A stretch of DNA of 64,000 nt from a virus. Lineage: Duplodnaviria > Caudoviricetes. Under the pieces are notes generated by a model, which was not told the origin of the DNA, did not search any database, and was given only the letters and a program-made list of their open reading frames with translations. Position 1 is the first letter of the stretch, and the number at the start of each line of letters is the position of its first letter. Below, piece by piece: positions 36,465-44,138 of the stretch. The position numbers and the translations under genes are program-made. Location: the IMG/VR virus record IMGVR_UViG_3300038443_002533, positions 96,001 to 160,000 of that record; one strand, given 5' to 3'.

Positions 36465-37541
36465 ATGCAGCAACCCGATCAATACAAGGCGCTCTTACAA
36501 CGTGTCATGGTGCCGGAAAACCTGCGCCCTAACCGCACCGGTGTCGACGCTTATAAGACCAGCGGTGAATTCATGGTGTTCCCGGATGTCTCAAAAGCGT
36601 TCCCGGCCACTACTCTCAAGAAGCTGGCGTTCATGCCAGTCAAAGGTGAATCGTGTGGTTTCCTGCGCGCTTTGACCAACGCTGCTGACTTCCGTGCCCT
36701 GAACTGCAAAGTGTGGGATCAGAATGCCAACGAACACGGCGTTACGCCGAACGCCTGGCTGTCCAATCCGTTCCGTCTGGGAACCGATGATGTCGGCCCG
36801 GTCTATGGAAAACAATGGCGGGAATGGGACGGTTACAAAGTCCTACCCAATCCGACTAACCGGGAAGAGATCGAGCGTCACAGTGCGATCGTGCAAAAGA
36901 TCAAGGCCGATGGTTGGGCGCTGATCGGACACACTTTCCACGCCGAAGACGGCATTCATGAAGAAGGTTCGATCTCGGGCGAAGTCTGGCACAAGTCGAT
37001 CGACCAGTTAGGCGACTGCGTGCGCCAGATCATCAAAAACCCGGACAGCCGTCGAATTCTGTACCATGGCTGGAATCCAGCGGTGCTGGACCAAGTCGCT
37101 CTGCCGGCTTGCCACTTGCTGTACCAGTTCCTGCCCGACAGCCACACTAAGGAACTGAACATGGTGTTGTACATCCGCAGCAATGATCTCGGTCTCGGGG
37201 CGCCGTTCAACATGGCGGAAGCGGCTCTGTTCATGCACATCGTCGGTCATTTGACCGGTTACAAACCAAAGAAGCTGTCGTACTTCATCGGCGACGCTCA
37301 CGTCTACGTCAACCAGGTCGAATATCTGACCGAACTGCTTTCGAACGAAGCGAAAGAATCACCCGTCCTGAGCATCAGTACACGGGTGCCAAGTTACAGT
37401 GAACTTATTGATCGCGTGGGTGAAAGCAATGCTACGGAAGAAGCGGTCAAGTGGCTGAAGCTAGTGGAGCCGGATGATTTCAAACTCGAAGGTTACGACC
37501 CACACATCCTGTCCACTCCAGTGCCGCAGATGGTCGTTTAA
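36465..37541 (+). CDS. thyA: Thymidylate synthase
   Basis: RTG, GPVYGKQWR, SRR, ALPACH (catalytic Cys), RSNDLGLGAPFN, GDAHVY. Confidence 0.97.
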   Translation: MQQPDQYKALLQRVMVPENLRPNRTGVDAYKTSGEFMVFPDVSKAFPATTLKKLAFMPVKGESCGFLRALTNAADFRALNCKVWDQNANEHGVTPNAWLSNPFRLGTDDVGPVYGKQWREWDGYKVLPNPTNREEIERHSAIVQKIKADGWALIGHTFHAEDGIHEEGSISGEVWHKSIDQLGDCVRQIIKNPDSRRILYHGWNPAVLDQVALPACHLLYQFLPDSHTKELNMVLYIRSNDLGLGAPFNMAEAALFMHIVGHLTGYKPKKLSYFIGDAHVYVNQVEYLTELLSNEAKESPVLSISTRVPSYSELIDRVGESNATEEAVKWLKLVEPDDFKLEGYDPHILSTPVPQMVV

Positions 37542-37551
37542 GGAGACAACC

Positions 37552-37767
37552 ATGAACGGTAAAGGTGTGTCGATTGGAATGGCTATGATTATGGCACTCA
37601 GTGTTCCTATTACGCTGATCGTCTCTCATAACCGCGACCAACGCATCGGCAAGTACCTCGCGGAGCATCACTGTAGCCGTATTCGCGAGAATGGTTTCGA
37701 TCCCATGTACGCATGCGGTGATATCGAGATAACGGAAAGCGATATTCTCAAAATCACCACGAACTAA
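37552..37767 (+). CDS. Membrane microprotein, YxxxHxC...YxC paralog 1 of 5
   Basis: N-terminal TM; YLAEHHC...PMYACG. Confidence 0.7.
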   Translation: MNGKGVSIGMAMIMALSVPITLIVSHNRDQRIGKYLAEHHCSRIRENGFDPMYACGDIEITESDILKITTN

Positions 37768-37776
37768 TAAGAAAGG

Positions 37777-38079
37777 ATGGGTATGAACTTGAAAGACACA
37801 TACGACCCCGCGGTTGCATTTCGTCGCGATATCGACAACGCCAACGAAAACTCGATCGCCATGGTGGTGATGGTGCTCATTCTGGCGGGGATGGTGGCGC
37901 TGCTGCACTGGTCGAAACAGAAAGGCGAGGAAAACGATCAGAAAATCCTCGCTTATATCAACGCCCACCAGTGCCAGGTCGAGAATCTGACGCCGGGTCA
38001 CCGCGGAGCACGTGCGGTGTATCACTGCACGGAAGGGCAGTTGCTCGACGTCGAGTTGCGTAAGGAAGCCTTGAAATGA
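37777..38079 (+). CDS. Membrane microprotein, paralog 2 of 5
   Basis: TM; YINAHQC...AVYHCTEG. Confidence 0.7.
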   Translation: MGMNLKDTYDPAVAFRRDIDNANENSIAMVVMVLILAGMVALLHWSKQKGEENDQKILAYINAHQCQVENLTPGHRGARAVYHCTEGQLLDVELRKEALK

Positions 38080-38327
38080 AGGTGATCCGCCAATGGTGGT
38101 ACGAATACCGTGATCTGGTGATTCAATGGATCATCATCGCGGTGTTCGGGGCGGTGGTGTTGGGGTTTTACCAATACCACGTGGAACAAGACCGACCGCT
38201 GGTTGCGTATCTGAACCGTCACAAGTGTCAGGAACTCGGCCGGGTTGGCCAACCTGCTCAATCCGTTTACCAGTGCGACAACGGTTTGCATCTGGAAAAC
38301 GACTTACGCAAGGAAACCGGAACATGA
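38076..38327 (+). CDS. Membrane microprotein, paralog 3 of 5
   Basis: TM; YLNRHKC...SVYQCDNG; ATGA overlap. Confidence 0.7.
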   Translation: MKVIRQWWYEYRDLVIQWIIIAVFGAVVLGFYQYHVEQDRPLVAYLNRHKCQELGRVGQPAQSVYQCDNGLHLENDLRKETGT

Positions 38328-38575
38328 TCAAGTGGTATAAATCCCTTAGTGAAGGTCGGAGGATTCTGGTGTTATGGGTCGGCATCGTGGTGATGGGTAA
38401 TTTCAACTGGCTGCTTTACGAATTAACCAGTGAGAGAAAAGCCAAAGTGTCGACTTACATCGCTGAGCACAAATGCAAGATCGTTAGCTATGCGGGGCGT
38501 GACGCTGAACCGGTGTACCAGTGTAACACGGGTCTGTTGATCCACAACCTTTTGGTAGACGAGGCACTGCGATGA
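38324..38575 (+). CDS. Membrane microprotein, paralog 4 of 5
   Basis: Start moved to 38324 (ATGA overlap); TM; YIAEHKC...PVYQCNTG. Confidence 0.7.
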   Translation: MIKWYKSLSEGRRILVLWVGIVVMGNFNWLLYELTSERKAKVSTYIAEHKCKIVSYAGRDAEPVYQCNTGLLIHNLLVDEALR

Positions 38576-38877
38576 ATATCGTAAAACTGAAGAAGGCGTG
38601 GCTGGATGTTTCGTGGACACCCGCCAGTATCGCGTCCGCACTATTTATCCTGGTGTGGGTGGCGGGGTTTATCCTGCTGATGTTAAATCGAGCGCCCACG
38701 AAAGTGGCGCAGCCAGTCGATCAACAAAAGTTCTGGCATTACATCGAACAACACAGCTGCCGTCGGGTGATCTGGATCACGGTCTGGTTCAAGAACGATC
38801 CACGCTATAATTGCGATAACGGTTGGTGGCGTGAAGAAGAATTGATCGAAGTCGCCAATAGCCGTTACCCACACTAA
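38572..38877 (+). CDS. Membrane microprotein, paralog 5 of 5
   Basis: TM; YIEQHSC...PRYNCDNG; ATGA overlap. Confidence 0.7.
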   Translation: MNIVKLKKAWLDVSWTPASIASALFILVWVAGFILLMLNRAPTKVAQPVDQQKFWHYIEQHSCRRVIWITVWFKNDPRYNCDNGWWREEELIEVANSRYPH

Positions 38878-38905
38878 GTCACCATTTTTAAACTAGGGAA
38901 TTATA

Positions 38906-39976
38906 ATGCAGTTGAATTTTGATGAAGAGTCGACTCCGGTCGCAGCAATCGACCAGAACGTCGATACCTCCCAACGCGTCAATGCATCGGACAAGCGCAT
39001 GATCAATGCTCTGACCGACGTGAACCAGCTGGTGCCGTTCAAGTACAAGTGGGCGTGGCAGATGTACAACGACAGCTGCGCCAACCACTGGATGCCGCAA
39101 GAATACAAGATGGACACGGACATTCAGCAAATGGCGTCGGGTCAAATCACCGCCGGTGAACGTGCCCGTATCGAGCGTACGGTCAGCGCGCTGGTGCGTA
39201 CGGTGGGCGGTGCTGGCGAACTGGCCATGCACATCTACCGCCACATCACAGCGCCGGAAGCGCGCCAGTACATCCTGCGCCAAGGCTTCGAAGAAGCACT
39301 GGTTCCGCACGCCTACGCCCACATCGTCGAGAAACTCAAGCTGGATGAAAATGTGTTGCTCGATCCGGCCACCCAGCCGGACACGTTCCATGACAAGCAA
39401 CGCTACATGGAACCCACGATCAAGCTCCTGACCGATCCGCTGTTCCGGACGGATTCGACGGAAAACATCCAAGCTTTCATTCGTGAACTCGTCAAGTACA
39501 CGTGCGTCATGAAAGGCATGTTCTCGATCGTTGACTTTACGCGCATGCTGGCCCTCGGCCAGCAGAACAAGATGCCGGATCTGGTCCAGCAATTCTCGCT
39601 GATGTTACGCGACCAACAAGCCCAGATCGAATTCGGTCTGGAAGTCATTCAGGCGATTCGTAACGAGAACACCCATGTTTGGACCGTGGAACTCGTGAAC
39701 GAAATCAAGGCGATCTTCAAGGAAGCGCTGGCGTGGGAAGTGGCACACGCTATCCGCACGGCTCGTCCGGAAGACGCGGAACAGGGTCAGCAGTTCAGCC
39801 ATCTGCTGCAACTGGTGGCCAACCGCATGGCTGGCAAGATCGGGGTCGGGGCGATCTTCCAGCCACAAGCCAATCCGTTCCCGTGGATGGCGCAAGCGCT
39901 CGGCCTGCAAGAGCACAAGCAGATCACGTCGGCGCCAGTCGAGAACAAAGTGTCCACGACGCTGGACTGGGAATAA
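38906..39976 (+). CDS. nrdB: Ribonucleotide reductase beta-subunit homologue lacking most metal ligands (probable pseudoenzyme)
   Basis: DKRMIN..DVNQLVPFKY.WAW..Y...CANHWMPQE, RQYILRQ.FEEA and NPFPWM match proteobacterial NrdB; ligand positions read V100, E130, V133, K203, Q237, Q240. Confidence 0.9.
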   Translation: MQLNFDEESTPVAAIDQNVDTSQRVNASDKRMINALTDVNQLVPFKYKWAWQMYNDSCANHWMPQEYKMDTDIQQMASGQITAGERARIERTVSALVRTVGGAGELAMHIYRHITAPEARQYILRQGFEEALVPHAYAHIVEKLKLDENVLLDPATQPDTFHDKQRYMEPTIKLLTDPLFRTDSTENIQAFIRELVKYTCVMKGMFSIVDFTRMLALGQQNKMPDLVQQFSLMLRDQQAQIEFGLEVIQAIRNENTHVWTVELVNEIKAIFKEALAWEVAHAIRTARPEDAEQGQQFSHLLQLVANRMAGKIGVGAIFQPQANPFPWMAQALGLQEHKQITSAPVENKVSTTLDWE

Positions 39977-39994: not shown

Positions 39995-40258
39995 ATGACG
40001 CAAACACGCTTGGAGTCGTTAATTGAATCGATCGTTAATGTGGTGATTGGTTTTGGGATAAATTACTTCGCGAATTTCGTGATCTTTCCCCATTTCGGGT
40101 TTCATCTTAGCGCCAGTGCAAATCTCGCGATGGGGGCTATCTACACGGTCATCAGCGTAACGCGATCGTATTGCATCCGACGTTGGTTCAACAATCACCT
40201 TAACGCCATGACACGGGCTTTAGCGACATTCATCATCCGAATCCGTTCTAATGCTTAA
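39995..40258 (+). CDS. Small two-TM phage membrane protein
   Basis: QTR.ESLIE...N...GF.I...IFP.FG...YCIRRWFN pattern, common in phages. Confidence 0.7.
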   Translation: MTQTRLESLIESIVNVVIGFGINYFANFVIFPHFGFHLSASANLAMGAIYTVISVTRSYCIRRWFNNHLNAMTRALATFIIRIRSNA

Positions 40259-40294: not shown

Positions 40295-40546
40295 ATGATG
40301 AAAGAAGCAGTCAAATGGTGTCTGTTTTTCGCCTGCGTCGTAGTGATAACGAACCAAGTGTTCGCCGCGCGACCCGCCCAAGCAGGTTCGATTGCGCCAC
40401 CGGTAAGTGAATTCACCTACACCACTTCCGCTGGTCAAAAAATCCACGTGAACTCGTGGACCCGCGGCGCAGTGCAATGTACGGCGTTGTCGACCGATGC
40501 CGCAAGAAGTACCGAAATTCCCCTCGCGATTTCCTGCACACAGTAA
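40295..40546 (+). CDS. Small secreted protein, paralog of 44207
   Basis: Signal peptide ending in AQA; SW....C...(I/V)SC motif. Confidence 0.65.
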   Translation: MMKEAVKWCLFFACVVVITNQVFAARPAQAGSIAPPVSEFTYTTSAGQKIHVNSWTRGAVQCTALSTDAARSTEIPLAISCTQ

Positions 40547-40622
40547 TCCCAGTACCCCCATACGCGAGAGGGGGCAACCCTTCTTCGTATGCCATCATTT
40601 TCTCACCCACCAAGGAAACCAC

Positions 40623-41312
40623 ATGAAAAAGATCTTTGCCCTCTGTCTCGCTCTGTCGCTCGCCGCTTGCGGTAACGACTACCCGCAGCAACCGGTCCAG
40701 TACCAACCGCAAGTCGTCCAGCAAGCCCCGGCCCCGGCCCCGGCCCCGGCCCCGGCCCAGCCGGTCGTGGTCCAGCAAGACAACTCCGGTACGGCCCTCG
40801 TCGCTGGCGCCGCCCTCGGCGCGGTCGCTACCATGGCCCTGACCAACCGTGACTCGGGCGCCCAAGCGCCGGTGCAGCAAAACATCACCCACGTGACCCA
40901 GGTCAACAAGACGGTGATCGTGAACAACAAGACCGTCGCACCCCCGGCCCCGCCGGCCGCGCCTGTCGCATCGGTATCGACGCCTCCTGTGGCCCCGGCA
41001 CCTGCCGCGGTGAACCTGACCAAAGCCCCGGCTGAAACCCCGGCTGCCAAACCGACCTATGCTGTCACCGGTACGGCCAGCCCGACACCGACCATGACTG
41101 CGGCGGCCCTGACGGCACCCAAGACGATCACGATGCCCGCCACCACGTCGGCGCCGTCGAACTACAAGCCGAACAACTATGCCCCGGTGAGCTACAGCAA
41201 ACCGGTCGCGTTGCCCGCTCCCAAGCCTGCGATGGCACCGGCACCGGCGAAGTTGTCGTATTCCGGCCCCAAGCCGCTGGCGATTTCGTATTCGCCTGGC
41301 AAGAAGAAGTGA
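40623..41312 (+). CDS. Low-complexity Pro/Ala-rich lipoprotein
   Basis: Start moved to 40623 (AAGGAA RBS); lipobox LAAC; APAPAPAPA; glycine-zipper-like AGAALGAVA. Confidence 0.75.
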   Translation: MKKIFALCLALSLAACGNDYPQQPVQYQPQVVQQAPAPAPAPAPAQPVVVQQDNSGTALVAGAALGAVATMALTNRDSGAQAPVQQNITHVTQVNKTVIVNNKTVAPPAPPAAPVASVSTPPVAPAPAAVNLTKAPAETPAAKPTYAVTGTASPTPTMTAAALTAPKTITMPATTSAPSNYKPNNYAPVSYSKPVALPAPKPAMAPAPAKLSYSGPKPLAISYSPGKKK

Positions 41313-41418
41313 AGGTTGCAGTTGAGTAATTTTTAACGAGACTGTGTCATGGTTTGAAGGGAATTGCGCCGCCCTCTAGGAGTTAGGAAAGATGCGCTTA
41401 TTTTTCGGGAGTCGAAAA

Positions 41419-42513
41419 ATGCAACAAAACTTTACAGCGTTTGCCAAACCCAAGCTGGGTGTGATGATCGGCCGTTTCTCGTTCATCCACCGTCAGCACG
41501 AACGTACCCTGCAAATCATGGCGGCCGAGAACGACTATATCCTGGTCATGATCGGTTCGGCGAATCGCTGCGTGTCCAAGAAGAACCCGCATGAATTCGC
41601 TGTGCGTGCCGAGATCATGAGCAAGCTGCTGCGCCGGCTCAAACCGGACGGGCAGTTTCGCATCGTGTCGCTCAACGATACCCTCTACAACGAGGAACGG
41701 TGGAAGATGCGGGTGTACGGGGCTGGCGAGCAGTACGCGCAGCGGTGTGGCATCCATCCGGAACGCATCACGCTGTATGGGACCGACAAGGATGAATCGA
41801 CCTACTACCTGAACTCCTTCCCGCAATGGAAGACCAAGGACGTGGGGCGGGTCGAAGACATCGACGCTACGCGGCTGCGTGAGCTGTGGTTCCGTCATTC
41901 GCAGACGGTACCCGGTGGTTTGCGTCTCCAGGACCATCTGGTCCCCGAGATGTTCGACTACCTGAAAGACGGCCACAAGTTCAACGAGGCGTTGCAGAAG
42001 GACTGGTATTACCTCACGGTGACCGAGCCGGATAAGTTCAAGGACTATCCGTATCCTGAAGCCTTGAACGTCATGTGCGGCGATGCAATCGTGGAATGCG
42101 CTGGCCATATCCTGACCGTGACCCGGTCCGGTGATCTCGGCTATGGGCAAGTCGCACTGCCAGGTGGCCACAAGAACAAGAACGAAACCGCGTTCAATGC
42201 GGCGCTTCGGGAACTGTTCGAGGAAACCAACTTGCGTGTGCCGGAGCAGACCATCCGTAACTGCGTGCAACAAACGTACCTGTTCGACCACCCGGGCCGG
42301 ACGCTGTCGTCGGTGCCAAAATCGACGCTCGGCGTTTACGTCAAGATCGAGCCGCGTGACGGCAAGTTTCCCCGTGCCAACGGCGGGGATGATGCCGCGC
42401 ATCCGACGTTACCGAATGGTGGGATCCGCTGGATTCCCAAGTTCGACATCATCAGCGGTAAAGTCAAGATGTGGGACGACCACAATGACATCGTGGATTA
42501 TTTCACGGCGTAA
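41419..42513 (+). CDS. nadM: Bifunctional NMN adenylyltransferase / Nudix ADP-ribose pyrophosphatase (NadM-Nudix, NatV-like)
   Basis: GRF...HRQH, IGSAN, NP, Nudix box GGHKNKNETAFNAALRELFEET, DH..I; start probably ATG 41419 (GGAG RBS). Confidence 0.9.
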   Translation: MQQNFTAFAKPKLGVMIGRFSFIHRQHERTLQIMAAENDYILVMIGSANRCVSKKNPHEFAVRAEIMSKLLRRLKPDGQFRIVSLNDTLYNEERWKMRVYGAGEQYAQRCGIHPERITLYGTDKDESTYYLNSFPQWKTKDVGRVEDIDATRLRELWFRHSQTVPGGLRLQDHLVPEMFDYLKDGHKFNEALQKDWYYLTVTEPDKFKDYPYPEALNVMCGDAIVECAGHILTVTRSGDLGYGQVALPGGHKNKNETAFNAALRELFEETNLRVPEQTIRNCVQQTYLFDHPGRTLSSVPKSTLGVYVKIEPRDGKFPRANGGDDAAHPTLPNGGIRWIPKFDIISGKVKMWDDHNDIVDYFTA

Positions 42514-42584: not shown

Positions 42585-44138
42585 ATGCTGGAAATCGTAA
42601 AACCCTTCAACATCATCCTCTGGTGCGACACGTACAAGTTTGCTCACTGGGAAGAAATTCCGTTCGGTGTCAAGCAGATGGTGTCGGCGGTCGTGCCGCG
42701 CAAAGCCCTCTACGGCGATGACGGTGAATTCATCACCGACGAAATCGTGACGGCTGGACAAACGTTCATCGCGCACGTTTTCGCGACGGCCCGCCTCGAA
42801 CAGTGGATGATCGACGAAGCAGAAGTCGAAATTACCGAGCAGGGCTACAACTTCAACCGCGAAGGTTGGGAGTACATCCTCCGTACTTACGGCGGCCGTA
42901 TCCCCCTGACCATGTTCGGGGTCGAAGAAGGCCGTGTGGTTAAACCGCAAACGCCGATCCTGATGATCACCAATGAAGACGACGACCGGACCGCGTGGCT
43001 GGTGCCGTACTTCGAGCCGGTGATCCAGTCGGTCTCGTGGTCGATGACCTACACCGCCACCATCTGCCGTTACATGTTCACCGTGATGGCGTACTACGTA
43101 CTGCTGTCCGGCGGCAACATGAAAATGCTGGAATATCTGATCCACAACTTCGGTGATCGTGGAGCAGATGGCCCGGATGAAACCCCCGTGCTCAAAGGCA
43201 TTGCTCACGCGATGCTGTTCCTGGGCAGTGATTGCGGGCGCGCCAATCGCTACATCAAGGTGCTCTACAACACGTCCAAGCCGTACACCAGCTCGGTGGA
43301 AGCTACGGAACACACGACGGTCTGCCTGAATTCGGACGCGGAAACGCGTGACGACTTCGGCGGCATGCAGATGGTCATGCGCCGCCTCAAAGCTGTGGTC
43401 GAACGCAGCAAGCGCGGCATCGGTATCCCTGTGATCTCGACGGTGCCTGATACCTACGACGATGAACGTTTCGTCACGGTGTACGTGGCCGGCTTCAAGG
43501 TGGAAATCGAAAATTCGGGCGGACGTCTCGTCATTCGTCCGGACTCCGGTATCCCCAAGAAGAAACTGCCGCAAGTACTCGGCTGGCTGAAAGATATCTT
43601 CGGCACGACCTTGAACGAAGCTGGCTACCAAGACCTGCCATGGTGCATCGGGGCACTCTACGGTGACGGCATGAACGTTAACACGTTCGAACCTGTCGTG
43701 CGGGCAGCGGTGGTGGACCACAAGTACACCACCAACAACTTCCTGCTCGGCATGGGTGCCGGCATCACCAACGAAGGCTCCCGCGACAAACTGAGCTTCA
43801 GCATGAAAACGATCGCAGAACGCCGCGAATCGTGGAAGCGCGTGCTCAAGGAGCCGAAGTCCGACATGGGTAAGAAGTCGCTGTCGGGTCTGATCCGCAA
43901 TCGTGAAAACGAATACGGCGAACTCGAAACCTTCGACGCCTTGGCTTCGAACAGCTTGTACGAGATGTTCGTGCCGGGCCCGGGACACCGTCGCTGGCTC
44001 GACAAGGGCTATCGCGACTGGCGTCAATCGTTCGATGACACCCGCGCAAATGCGCAGAAAGGCGCCATCGACAAAGCGGCGAATCGTCTGGCCGCTGAAA
44101 AAGCAGTCAATGACGAAGCCGTCGCTGAAGTAGCGTAA
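42585..44138 (+). CDS. nadV: Nicotinamide phosphoribosyltransferase (NAMPT)
   Basis: DTYKFAH, HNFGDRG, ATEH, DTYD, LVIRPDSG, YGDG, RD..SFSMK, PK.D.GKKS. Confidence 0.93.
   Translation: MLEIVKPFNIILWCDTYKFAHWEEIPFGVKQMVSAVVPRKALYGDDGEFITDEIVTAGQTFIAHVFATARLEQWMIDEAEVEITEQGYNFNREGWEYILRTYGGRIPLTMFGVEEGRVVKPQTPILMITNEDDDRTAWLVPYFEPVIQSVSWSMTYTATICRYMFTVMAYYVLLSGGNMKMLEYLIHNFGDRGADGPDETPVLKGIAHAMLFLGSDCGRANRYIKVLYNTSKPYTSSVEATEHTTVCLNSDAETRDDFGGMQMVMRRLKAVVERSKRGIGIPVISTVPDTYDDERFVTVYVAGFKVEIENSGGRLVIRPDSGIPKKKLPQVLGWLKDIFGTTLNEAGYQDLPWCIGALYGDGMNVNTFEPVVRAAVVDHKYTTNNFLLGMGAGITNEGSRDKLSFSMKTIAERRESWKRVLKEPKSDMGKKSLSGLIRNRENEYGELETFDALASNSLYEMFVPGPGHRRWLDKGYRDWRQSFDDTRANAQKGAIDKAANRLAAEKAVNDEAVAEVA

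Follow-up and report, generated by a model that had tools for sequence, protein, structure and literature searches.

A phiKZ-like jumbo phage carries a ribonucleotide reductase small subunit that has lost five of its six metal ligands and its radical relay: a possible non-catalytic partner of the host enzyme

The stretch of DNA analyzed here (64,000 nucleotides, hereafter the window) comprises bases 96001-160000 of the virus record IMGVR_UViG_3300038443_002533, a genome of 272,470 bp that has direct terminal repeats and is rated 100% complete. The window contains a gene, termed R2-prime (product P0001), whose product belongs to the NrdB family, the small (beta, or R2) subunits of class I ribonucleotide reductase (RNR). 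As read from its residues, P0001 is unable to bind a dimetal cofactor in the known way or to relay a radical. What appears to be kept is the R2 fold, together with the N-terminal arm and, at the C-terminus, the anchor used for gripping the large (alpha) subunit, in a protein from which the dimetal site and the tail Tyr have gone. The explanation favored here, tentatively and with confidence that falls short of an even chance, is that P0001 serves as a non-catalytic beta-prime subunit that docks on the class Ia RNR of the host, with the net effect of competing with the active host beta. Binding to the host RNR is what we infer from this pattern, and, more weakly, we take the direction of the effect to be inhibition.

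The ligand columns were derived by aligning P0001 to Chlamydia class Ic R2 (R2c) with HMMER and by comparing it with aligned intact NrdB proteins of betaproteobacteria, and the codons were checked in the window. The features of the gene and its product are as follows.

38895..38899, plus strand: Shine-Dalgarno-like AGGGA, 6 nucleotides (nt) before the ATG, read from the sequence.
38906..39976, plus strand: R2-prime gene, stop codon included, encoding P0001 of 356 amino acids (aa), from the list of open reading frames (ORFs) and the translation.
38975..39103, plus strand: N-terminal arm, residues 24-66, to the W-M-P-x-E motif (W62, equivalent to E. coli W48), the most conserved stretch.
39203..39205, plus strand: ligand 1, E. 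coli D84, replaced by V100 (alignments and codon check).
39293..39316, plus strand: first ExxH motif, E130-A-L-V133-P-H-A-Y137, in which the Glu and the radical-site Tyr are kept and the His is replaced by Val.
Plus strand, in this motif: ligand 2, E. coli E115, kept as E130 (alignments).
Plus strand, in this motif: ligand 3, E. coli H118, replaced by V133 (alignments).
In this motif: radical site, E. coli Y122, kept as Y137.
39512..39514, plus strand: ligand 4, E. coli E204, replaced by K203 (alignments).
39611..39625, plus strand: second ExxH motif, D236-Q237-Q-A-Q240, in which both ligands are replaced by Gln and D236 is kept.
Plus strand, in this motif: ligand 5, E. coli E238, replaced by Q237 (alignments).
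Plus strand, in this motif: ligand 6, E. coli H241, replaced by Q240 (alignments).
Relay residues, E. coli W48 and D237, kept as W62 and D236.
39914..39973, plus strand: disordered C-terminal tail, residues 337-356, with a predicted local distance difference test score (pLDDT) below 50, including E346-N347-K348 and the anchor L353-x-W355-E356.
Tail relay Tyr, E. coli Y356, replaced by N347 (E-Y-Q to E-N-K).

The ORF is intact on the plus strand, with an ATG start and a TAA stop. Its product matches the Pfam family PF00268 (Ribonuc_red_sm) with an E-value of 5e-45 and 154 bits (cut-off 33.6), over positions 2-281 of the 281-position profile, and matches the class Ic R2 structures 6Y2N, 1SYY, 2ANI and 4D8F (the last three from Chlamydia) with E-values of about 1e-67. 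The AlphaFold2 model, built from a 97-row alignment, has a mean pLDDT of 82 and reaches at least 90 at 213 residues, and disorder is confined to residues 1-25 and 337-356, as is the case for free R2 proteins. In a Foldseek search, the top matches of the model were Chlamydia NrdB proteins (TM-scores of 0.79-0.91). The match above the curated cut-off, together with the predicted R2 helical-bundle fold, places P0001 in the RNR small-subunit superfamily. Identity to the NrdB proteins of Burkholderiales is 42-44%. The stretch was present in one DNA sequencing run (a rhizosphere metagenome, the probable source); none of the runs listed was an RNA run, which has no bearing on expression.

The consensus of the parent family at the four core motifs is VTADS, EEAIH, MEGLFF and RDESMH, that of the betaproteobacterial and Chlamydia-type group and not of the E. 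coli type. This group corresponds to cluster 2 of a published sequence similarity network, which unites Ia-like with Ic-like sequences (PMC8463856). A previous sequence-only reading had recognized NrdB ancestry at both ends of the protein, and the PF00268 and R2c matches, together with a tree in which P0001 is nested within betaproteobacterial-type NrdB, bear this out. The same reading had listed substitutions in the core relative to a proteobacterial NrdB consensus and had left E130 as the sole survivor of six ligands. All of these substitutions are present in the alignments to R2c and intact NrdB, E130 included; the reference group had to be changed to the betaproteobacterial and Chlamydia type, and the first ligand maps to V100. 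Loss of the C-terminal radical-transfer Tyr (now N347) with retention of the LDWE end was likewise correctly read. The emphasis on the retained radical Tyr was weakened by the homologues: Y137 is indeed kept in P0001, and the corresponding column holds H, Q or F in four relatives (P0005, P0121, P0124 and L012).

Relative to a catalytic class Ia or Ic beta, P0001 thus lacks the six-ligand set (E130 alone is left and five of the six are replaced) and the relay Tyr, replaced by N347. The latter residue, Y356 in E. coli, is essential and conserved throughout the characterized class I RNRs (PMC8463856). A buried ion pair between K203 and E130 probably occupies the former metal pocket and would replace the metal as an internal cross-link of the helical bundle; the pair is proposed because, in the geometry of the known site, both positions ligate metal 2 in canonical R2. 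Both E130 and K203 are kept in almost the whole clade of degenerate homologues described below. A new mononuclear metal site formed by H135, H139 and E129 was considered and rejected, since H135 is invariant in working NrdB as well and both His residues, being on a helix, should face away from the old site.

In contrast to the core, the two contact regions retain the character of a working small subunit. Residues 24-66 have a mean column conservation of 0.90 in the degenerate clade versus 0.93 in intact NrdB, with the same consensus in 81% of the columns, and conservation of the remaining regions of P0001 in the degenerate clade falls to 0.47-0.75. These figures and the tail comparison were taken from an alignment of 11 degenerate and 18 intact sequences, from which P0124 was left out. 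In this alignment the relay Tyr is present in 18 of 18 intact and 0 of 11 degenerate sequences, and neither L353 nor W355 varies in either set. P0001 terminates in T-L-D-W-E, where host-type NrdB tails terminate in L-x-W-D/E, so that by its sequence it carries a putative alpha-binding anchor. E346 is also kept in the tail, and K348 is a clade-specific gain. L353, W355 and the acidic end are retained in P0001 and ten other members of the clade, although the remaining tail has changed; P0124, which also has no relay Tyr, ends in L-S-F-D, with Phe at the Trp position and an acidic end. Further fixed changes specific to the clade, in tail and body, are G333, G104, I110, F191 and Y198. Constraint has been redistributed, with its maximum in the dimer arm and in the anchor for alpha.

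The phage is a phiKZ-like jumbo phage, as indicated by a match to the PhiKZ major capsid family (E-value of 1e-162), and, among cultured phages, Burkholderia phage FLC9 comes nearest as judged from a single virion protein, with 40% identity. Its complete genome holds a single PF00268 locus. No PF02867 domain (class I/II large subunit), second nrdB, NrdD or NrdI was found in the complete 272-kb genome, and a tblastn search of that genome with NrdA of Collimonas (Burkholderiales) gave a best E-value of 1.3. The cognate alpha that accompanies a catalytic class Ia or Ic beta is consequently absent from the complete phage genome as well. Among the relatives, nrdA was looked for in IMG/VR records: the other complete genomes that carry the degenerate gene (G002 and G003, in addition to G000) are also without nrdA and without a second nrdB, as is the 83%-complete G001. 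In contrast, two phiKZ-like jumbo phages (G004 and G005) carry a ligand-intact nrdB with nrdA immediately upstream, and their nrdB sequences form short branches among the bacterial NrdBs. Judging by sequence, these nrdAB pairs look like recent host-derived operons and not like the ancestor of R2-prime. An origin of R2-prime in place from phage nrdAB was considered and rejected, since R2-prime is not syntenic with nrdAB of G004, which lies beside the capsid gene and not in the thyA module. In that 272-kb phage (locus L106, G004:C1:178000-197900), the host-like nrdA-nrdB pair is situated directly downstream of the PhiKZ-type major capsid gene, an unusual site.

A search of 5.8 billion proteins returned two homologues close to P0001, with identities of 75% and 72%, each encoded by a phage contig some 270 kb long, then farther degenerate homologues at 43-47%, and next thousands of intact NrdBs, led by those of Oxalobacteraceae and other Burkholderiales at 42-44%. 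Scans of IMG/VR added further degenerate copies on complete phage genomes of 271 kb and 322 kb. A tblastn search of 50,697 phage records with P0001 yielded no member of the degenerate clade; the best matches there were nrdB genes, at 37.5% in Acinetobacter phage MD-2021a and at 31% in phages of P. putida. In the Pseudomonas putida phage records PP496436-PP496444, the nrdB match is in two pieces over about 1.7 kb with an annotated "hypothetical protein" between them, probably an intron or a homing-endonuclease insertion. A separate 5.4-kb ENA contig encodes an otherwise intact NrdB of 491 aa (P0004) with an internal tandem duplication of about 130 residues, covering the second and third ligand helices, which may be an assembly artifact or real.

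In a maximum-likelihood tree, the 12 degenerate sequences (P0001 and 11 others) form one clade, with support of 100/98, nested inside the intact betaproteobacterial-type NrdB. Their branches are about tenfold longer than those of intact NrdB, and the path from the intact cluster to P0001 amounts to about 3 changes per site, where most intact end branches measure 0.02-0.25. Within the clade there is a ladder from three ligands lost (P0124, L019 and P0122) to four or five lost, which suggests, from the sequences, stepwise decay after a single origin. Neither the first His nor the relay Tyr is present in any of the 12 members, and in every one of them the tail still finishes with the hydrophobic, aromatic and acidic anchor. 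In 11 of the 12, Lys replaces the E204 ligand and the aromatic of the anchor is Trp; the exception is the earliest-branching P0124, with Glu and Phe.

The ORFs are intact in all 12 lineages, down to 42-47% identity. Ratios of nonsynonymous to synonymous substitution rates (dN/dS, Nei-Gojobori) were 0.12 for G000 versus L002 and 0.19 for G000 versus L003, at dS of 1.1-1.4; the deeper pairs gave 0.18-0.47 with dS saturated. On these substitution patterns R2-prime is under purifying selection and is not decaying. The sequence-only reading had taken the ORF to be intact and under selection, had noted that nrdA is missing from the window and had proposed a full-genome search for nrdA and a second nrdB. 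The first point agrees with the ratios for the closest pairs and with homologous ORFs that are intact and not neutrally evolving; the absence of nrdA extends to the complete genome by both the PF02867 profile and the NrdA tblastn search, and the search for another nrdB returned the single PF00268 locus only. Its exclusion of class Ie also stands, with both His residues lost, the relay Tyr absent and no NrdI in the phage.

R2-prime is part of a co-directional module of nucleotide and cofactor genes, the other assigned members of which are listed here.

36465-37541: thyA homologue, 358 aa, with a match that spans residues 6-347 on a 266-position profile.
39995-40258: DUF7220 gene, 87 aa, Pfam E-value of 7e-28, 19 nt past the R2-prime stop.
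41392-42513: NMNAT-Nudix fusion, from the Pfam scan.
42585-44138: NAMPT, from the Pfam scan.

In every relative with genomic context, R2-prime lies downstream of thyA with small ORFs between them, and in most of these the NMNAT-Nudix and NAMPT genes follow. The latter two constitute a gene pair for salvage of nicotinamide adenine dinucleotide (NAD) 1.4 kb downstream of R2-prime, and the pair is also found beside R2-prime in G003, L002, L003 and L005. Pairs of NAMPT and NMNAT-Nudix have been reported as counter-defence against NAD depletion. Thymidylate kinase, NADAR and DHFR occupy corresponding places in related loci. A soil bacterium of the Burkholderiales is the probable host, judging only by the nearest NrdB relatives (Oxalobacteraceae) and the FLC9 virion-protein likeness.

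Several features of the surrounding genes were observed in addition. The thymidylate synthase homologue contains about 90 inserted residues, and its homologue in L021 has 480 aa. The gap between thyA and R2-prime is occupied by tandem genes for small single-pass membrane proteins (37474-38877; four ORFs of 83-101 aa), and similar runs of small ORFs fill this gap in related phages. At the position of the DUF7220 gene, the two closest relatives (L002 and L003) have ORFs of 95-96 aa. Farther downstream, at 40497-41312, is a Pro/Ala-rich ORF with an internal Met and a lipoprotein-like signal (M-K-K-I-F-A-L-C-L-A-L-S-L-A-A-C), the position of which is taken in relatives by a Band_7 (stomatin-like) gene.

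With no large subunit encoded by the phage, the class Ia RNR of the host is the sole available partner of a known kind; and since the arm for dimerization and the anchor for alpha are the most strongly constrained features, binding to that enzyme is the simplest function to propose. In the proposed mechanism, the P0001 tail would dock on host NrdA, and P0001 might possibly pair with host NrdB through the conserved arm. Competition with the active host beta would then throttle or re-route ribonucleotide reduction in the host, and the phage would meanwhile live on salvage of host DNA, for which thyA, thymidylate kinase and DHFR are found in the same module. There are precedents: a point mutant of vaccinia R2, predicted to be inactive, retained R1 binding and was dominant negative, and orphan R2 proteins of poxviruses form complexes with host R1 via their C-termini (PMC2900304). 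Complex prediction with residues 230-935 of Collimonas NrdA (42-row alignment) and residues 305-356 of P0001, performed without controls, gave values of 0.46, 0.31 and 0.11 in three runs, the median of 0.31 compared with a mark of 0.32, and weighs neither for nor against binding.

A number of considerations weigh against this explanation. Binding to the host RNR is a prediction from sequence, and the assignment of the host derives only from the nearest NrdBs and one virion protein of FLC9. The investment in thyA, thymidylate kinase, DHFR and NAD salvage might suggest that the phage boosts the supply of deoxynucleoside triphosphates (dNTPs) and does not block the only de novo route. The conserved N-terminal arm fits a heterodimer with host NrdB, as in yeast Rnr4, at least equally well. 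Finally, outside the anchor the tail has diverged from the host type (K348 in place of Gln) and could have been re-aimed at another partner.

P0001 may instead be a helper in the manner of Rnr4, in which a beta/beta-prime heterodimer with host NrdB supports or multiplies the active host RNR; each radical-bearing host beta could then serve in a dimer of its own, through half-sites reactivity, and dNTPs would be gained without the making of a cofactor. In yeast, the active enzyme is alpha2-beta-beta-prime even though Rnr4 is without key diiron residues (PMC3824934), and half-of-sites reactivity has been described for class I RNR (PMC8463856). No region is better conserved than the arm as far as W62, which is almost of host type, as expected if it fits a host NrdB protomer, although a homodimer would need a conserved arm too. 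The neighboring "booster" genes (thyA, NMNAT-Nudix and NAMPT here; thymidylate kinase, DHFR and NADAR in related loci) accord with such a role. R2 dimers are tight, however, and P0001 may exchange only slowly with host beta2 that has already formed. Moreover, a radical-dead but tail-competent R2 was dominant negative by default in experiment (PMC2900304), and on balance the helper role is considered rather unlikely, if a serious contender. The possibility that the ferritin-like body and tail are a scaffold repurposed to bind a partner other than RNR is judged unlikely. Candidate partners are the nucleotide enzymes of the phage, with P0001 joining the neighboring thymidylate synthase in a T4-style dNTP-synthesis complex, or a host protein involved in defence or regulation, with P0001 as its decoy. 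The synteny of thyA, the small genes and R2-prime in every relative with context points in this direction, as does the proximity of the NAMPT and NMNAT-Nudix pair, 1.4 kb downstream; and the fixed changes of the clade (K348, G333, G104, I110, F191 and Y198) represent constraints that are absent from working NrdB. Nevertheless, the tail residues that are invariant in nearly all members are those of working NrdB, for which the simplest receptor is alpha, and the synteny with thyA may be merely ancestral; in T4, td is located beside nrdA and nrdB.

Two other readings fit the data far less well. That P0001 generates a radical by undescribed metal-free chemistry of the class Ie kind, working with host NrdA, is very improbable. 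Y137 and W62 are kept, and a Lys occupies the former metal site, as compared with the conserved Lys that replaces metal site 1 in class Ie (PMC8463856), but the Lys is at a different ligand position (E204, of metal 2), the relay Tyr is missing in 12 of 12 clade members, four of them have H, Q or F at the radical site, both His residues are lost where class Ie replaces just three carboxylates, and the genome has no NrdI. The least probable reading, close to refuted already, is that of a functionless, decaying remnant of a lost nrdAB operon: the loss of nrdA and the roughly tenfold longer branches would suit it, but these are outweighed by intact ORFs in 12 lineages down to 42-47% identity, by dN/dS of 0.12-0.19 where dS is not fully saturated, by K203 and the tail anchor kept in nearly all members along with a highly conserved N-terminal arm, and by a conserved genomic position.

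The occurrence of comparable proteins was analyzed further by searching a profile of the clade against 1.84 billion representatives at 50% identity, with the ligand columns read in the best 150 hits and in eight clade members. All six columns were readable in 107 proteins (the eight clade members and 99 of those 150 hits), by pairwise alignments in which the column assignments are approximate for the most distant representatives. Three to six ligands were replaced in 58 of the 107, and 42 of these 58 carried the hydrophobic-x-W/F-acidic end anchor. Many of the ligand-less R2-like proteins have N-terminal extensions of 100-350 residues. On these alignments, R2 proteins that lack ligands but have an R2-type tail seem to occur commonly in metagenomes. 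One large protein, P0223 (L023 5949-7907; 652 aa), consists in its C-terminal half of an R2-like region in which six of six ligand columns are replaced, and it ends in I-S-W-D; its contig is phage-like and carries a gene for the chaperonin Cpn60 three genes upstream.

De novo synthesis of DNA building blocks depends on RNR alone, an enzyme that is also a classic drug target, and phage RNR genes are usually taken as auxiliary metabolic genes and serve as markers in viromics. The phiKZ-like jumbo phage lineage studied here, and probably many other phages, keeps the small subunit alone, in a form that would be incapable of the chemistry, such that the automatic annotation "nrdB" in phage genomes can be functionally wrong. 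The chances are close to even that radical-dead, tail-competent R2 proteins constitute a large, unrecognized class of phage regulators of host ribonucleotide reduction, be they inhibitors or helpers. If so, phages would have a general means of acting, at the level of protein, on the one route by which the host makes dNTPs de novo. Host dNTP synthesis would then be controlled by subunit mimicry, the natural counterpart of the dominant-negative R2 mutants and tail peptides of the laboratory, and these proteins would supply ready-made binders, tuned by evolution, for bacterial class Ia RNR, with which the docking of alpha and beta could be probed.

Literature searches for inactive, ligand-less or pseudoenzyme R2 proteins in phages found no description within the searchable papers, and a comparative review of jumbo phages mentions RNR only for an intein (PMC7824862). 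Among the known systems, the NrdB proteins of betaproteobacteria and Chlamydia (1SYY, 4D8F, 4M1I and 6Y2N) share with P0001 the fold (TM-scores of 0.8-0.9), the N-terminal arm and the L-x-W-D/E anchor; they differ in that P0001 has five ligands and the relay Tyr replaced, no cognate NrdA and branches about tenfold longer. The class Ie NrdF proteins of M. florum, S. pyogenes and A. urinae are likewise altered at the metal ligands and have a Lys in the former metal site (PMC8463856). The class Ie features absent from P0001 are the replacement of three carboxylates only, the need for NrdI, a dihydroxyphenylalanine (DOPA) radical on a conserved Tyr, the relay Tyr and activity (PMC8463856); P0001 has lost both His residues, and its radical-site column varies across the clade. 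Assignment to R2lox is contradicted by the loss of the Mn/Fe ligand set, the presence of an R2-type tail and nearest structures that are true R2c. The betaherpesvirus R1 homologues of the M45/UL45 type are catalytically dead viral RNR large subunits kept for protein-protein interaction; they differ from P0001 in being R1 and not R2, in belonging to eukaryotic viruses and in having known targets outside RNR.

Closer in kind are the orphan R2 proteins of poxviruses (vaccinia F4 and other chordopoxvirus R2), which are viral small subunits without a viral large subunit and act on the host large subunit via their C-terminal residues, as is proposed for P0001; in contrast to P0001, with neither cofactor site nor relay Tyr, the natural poxvirus proteins are catalytically competent and supply dNTPs (PMC2900304). 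The other close parallel is Rnr4 (Y4), the non-catalytic beta-prime of the yeast Rnr2-Rnr4 heterodimer (Sommerhalter 2004 and Perlstein 2005, as relayed by PMC3824934). Rnr4 is an R2 paralogue without key diiron residues that forms no radical, keeps the R2 fold and acts via RNR protein contacts. P0001, with five of six ligands replaced, is also an R2 paralogue lacking diiron ligands, and its ligand loss is more complete. Rnr4 is encoded beside a working Rnr2 and Rnr1, whereas the phage has no other RNR gene, so that the partner of P0001 must be that of the host; in addition, P0001 is of independent origin, inside betaproteobacterial-type NrdB, and its heterodimer is hypothetical. By analogy, P0001 would resemble both Rnr4 and the poxvirus orphan R2 proteins in its mode of action, as a member of neither group.

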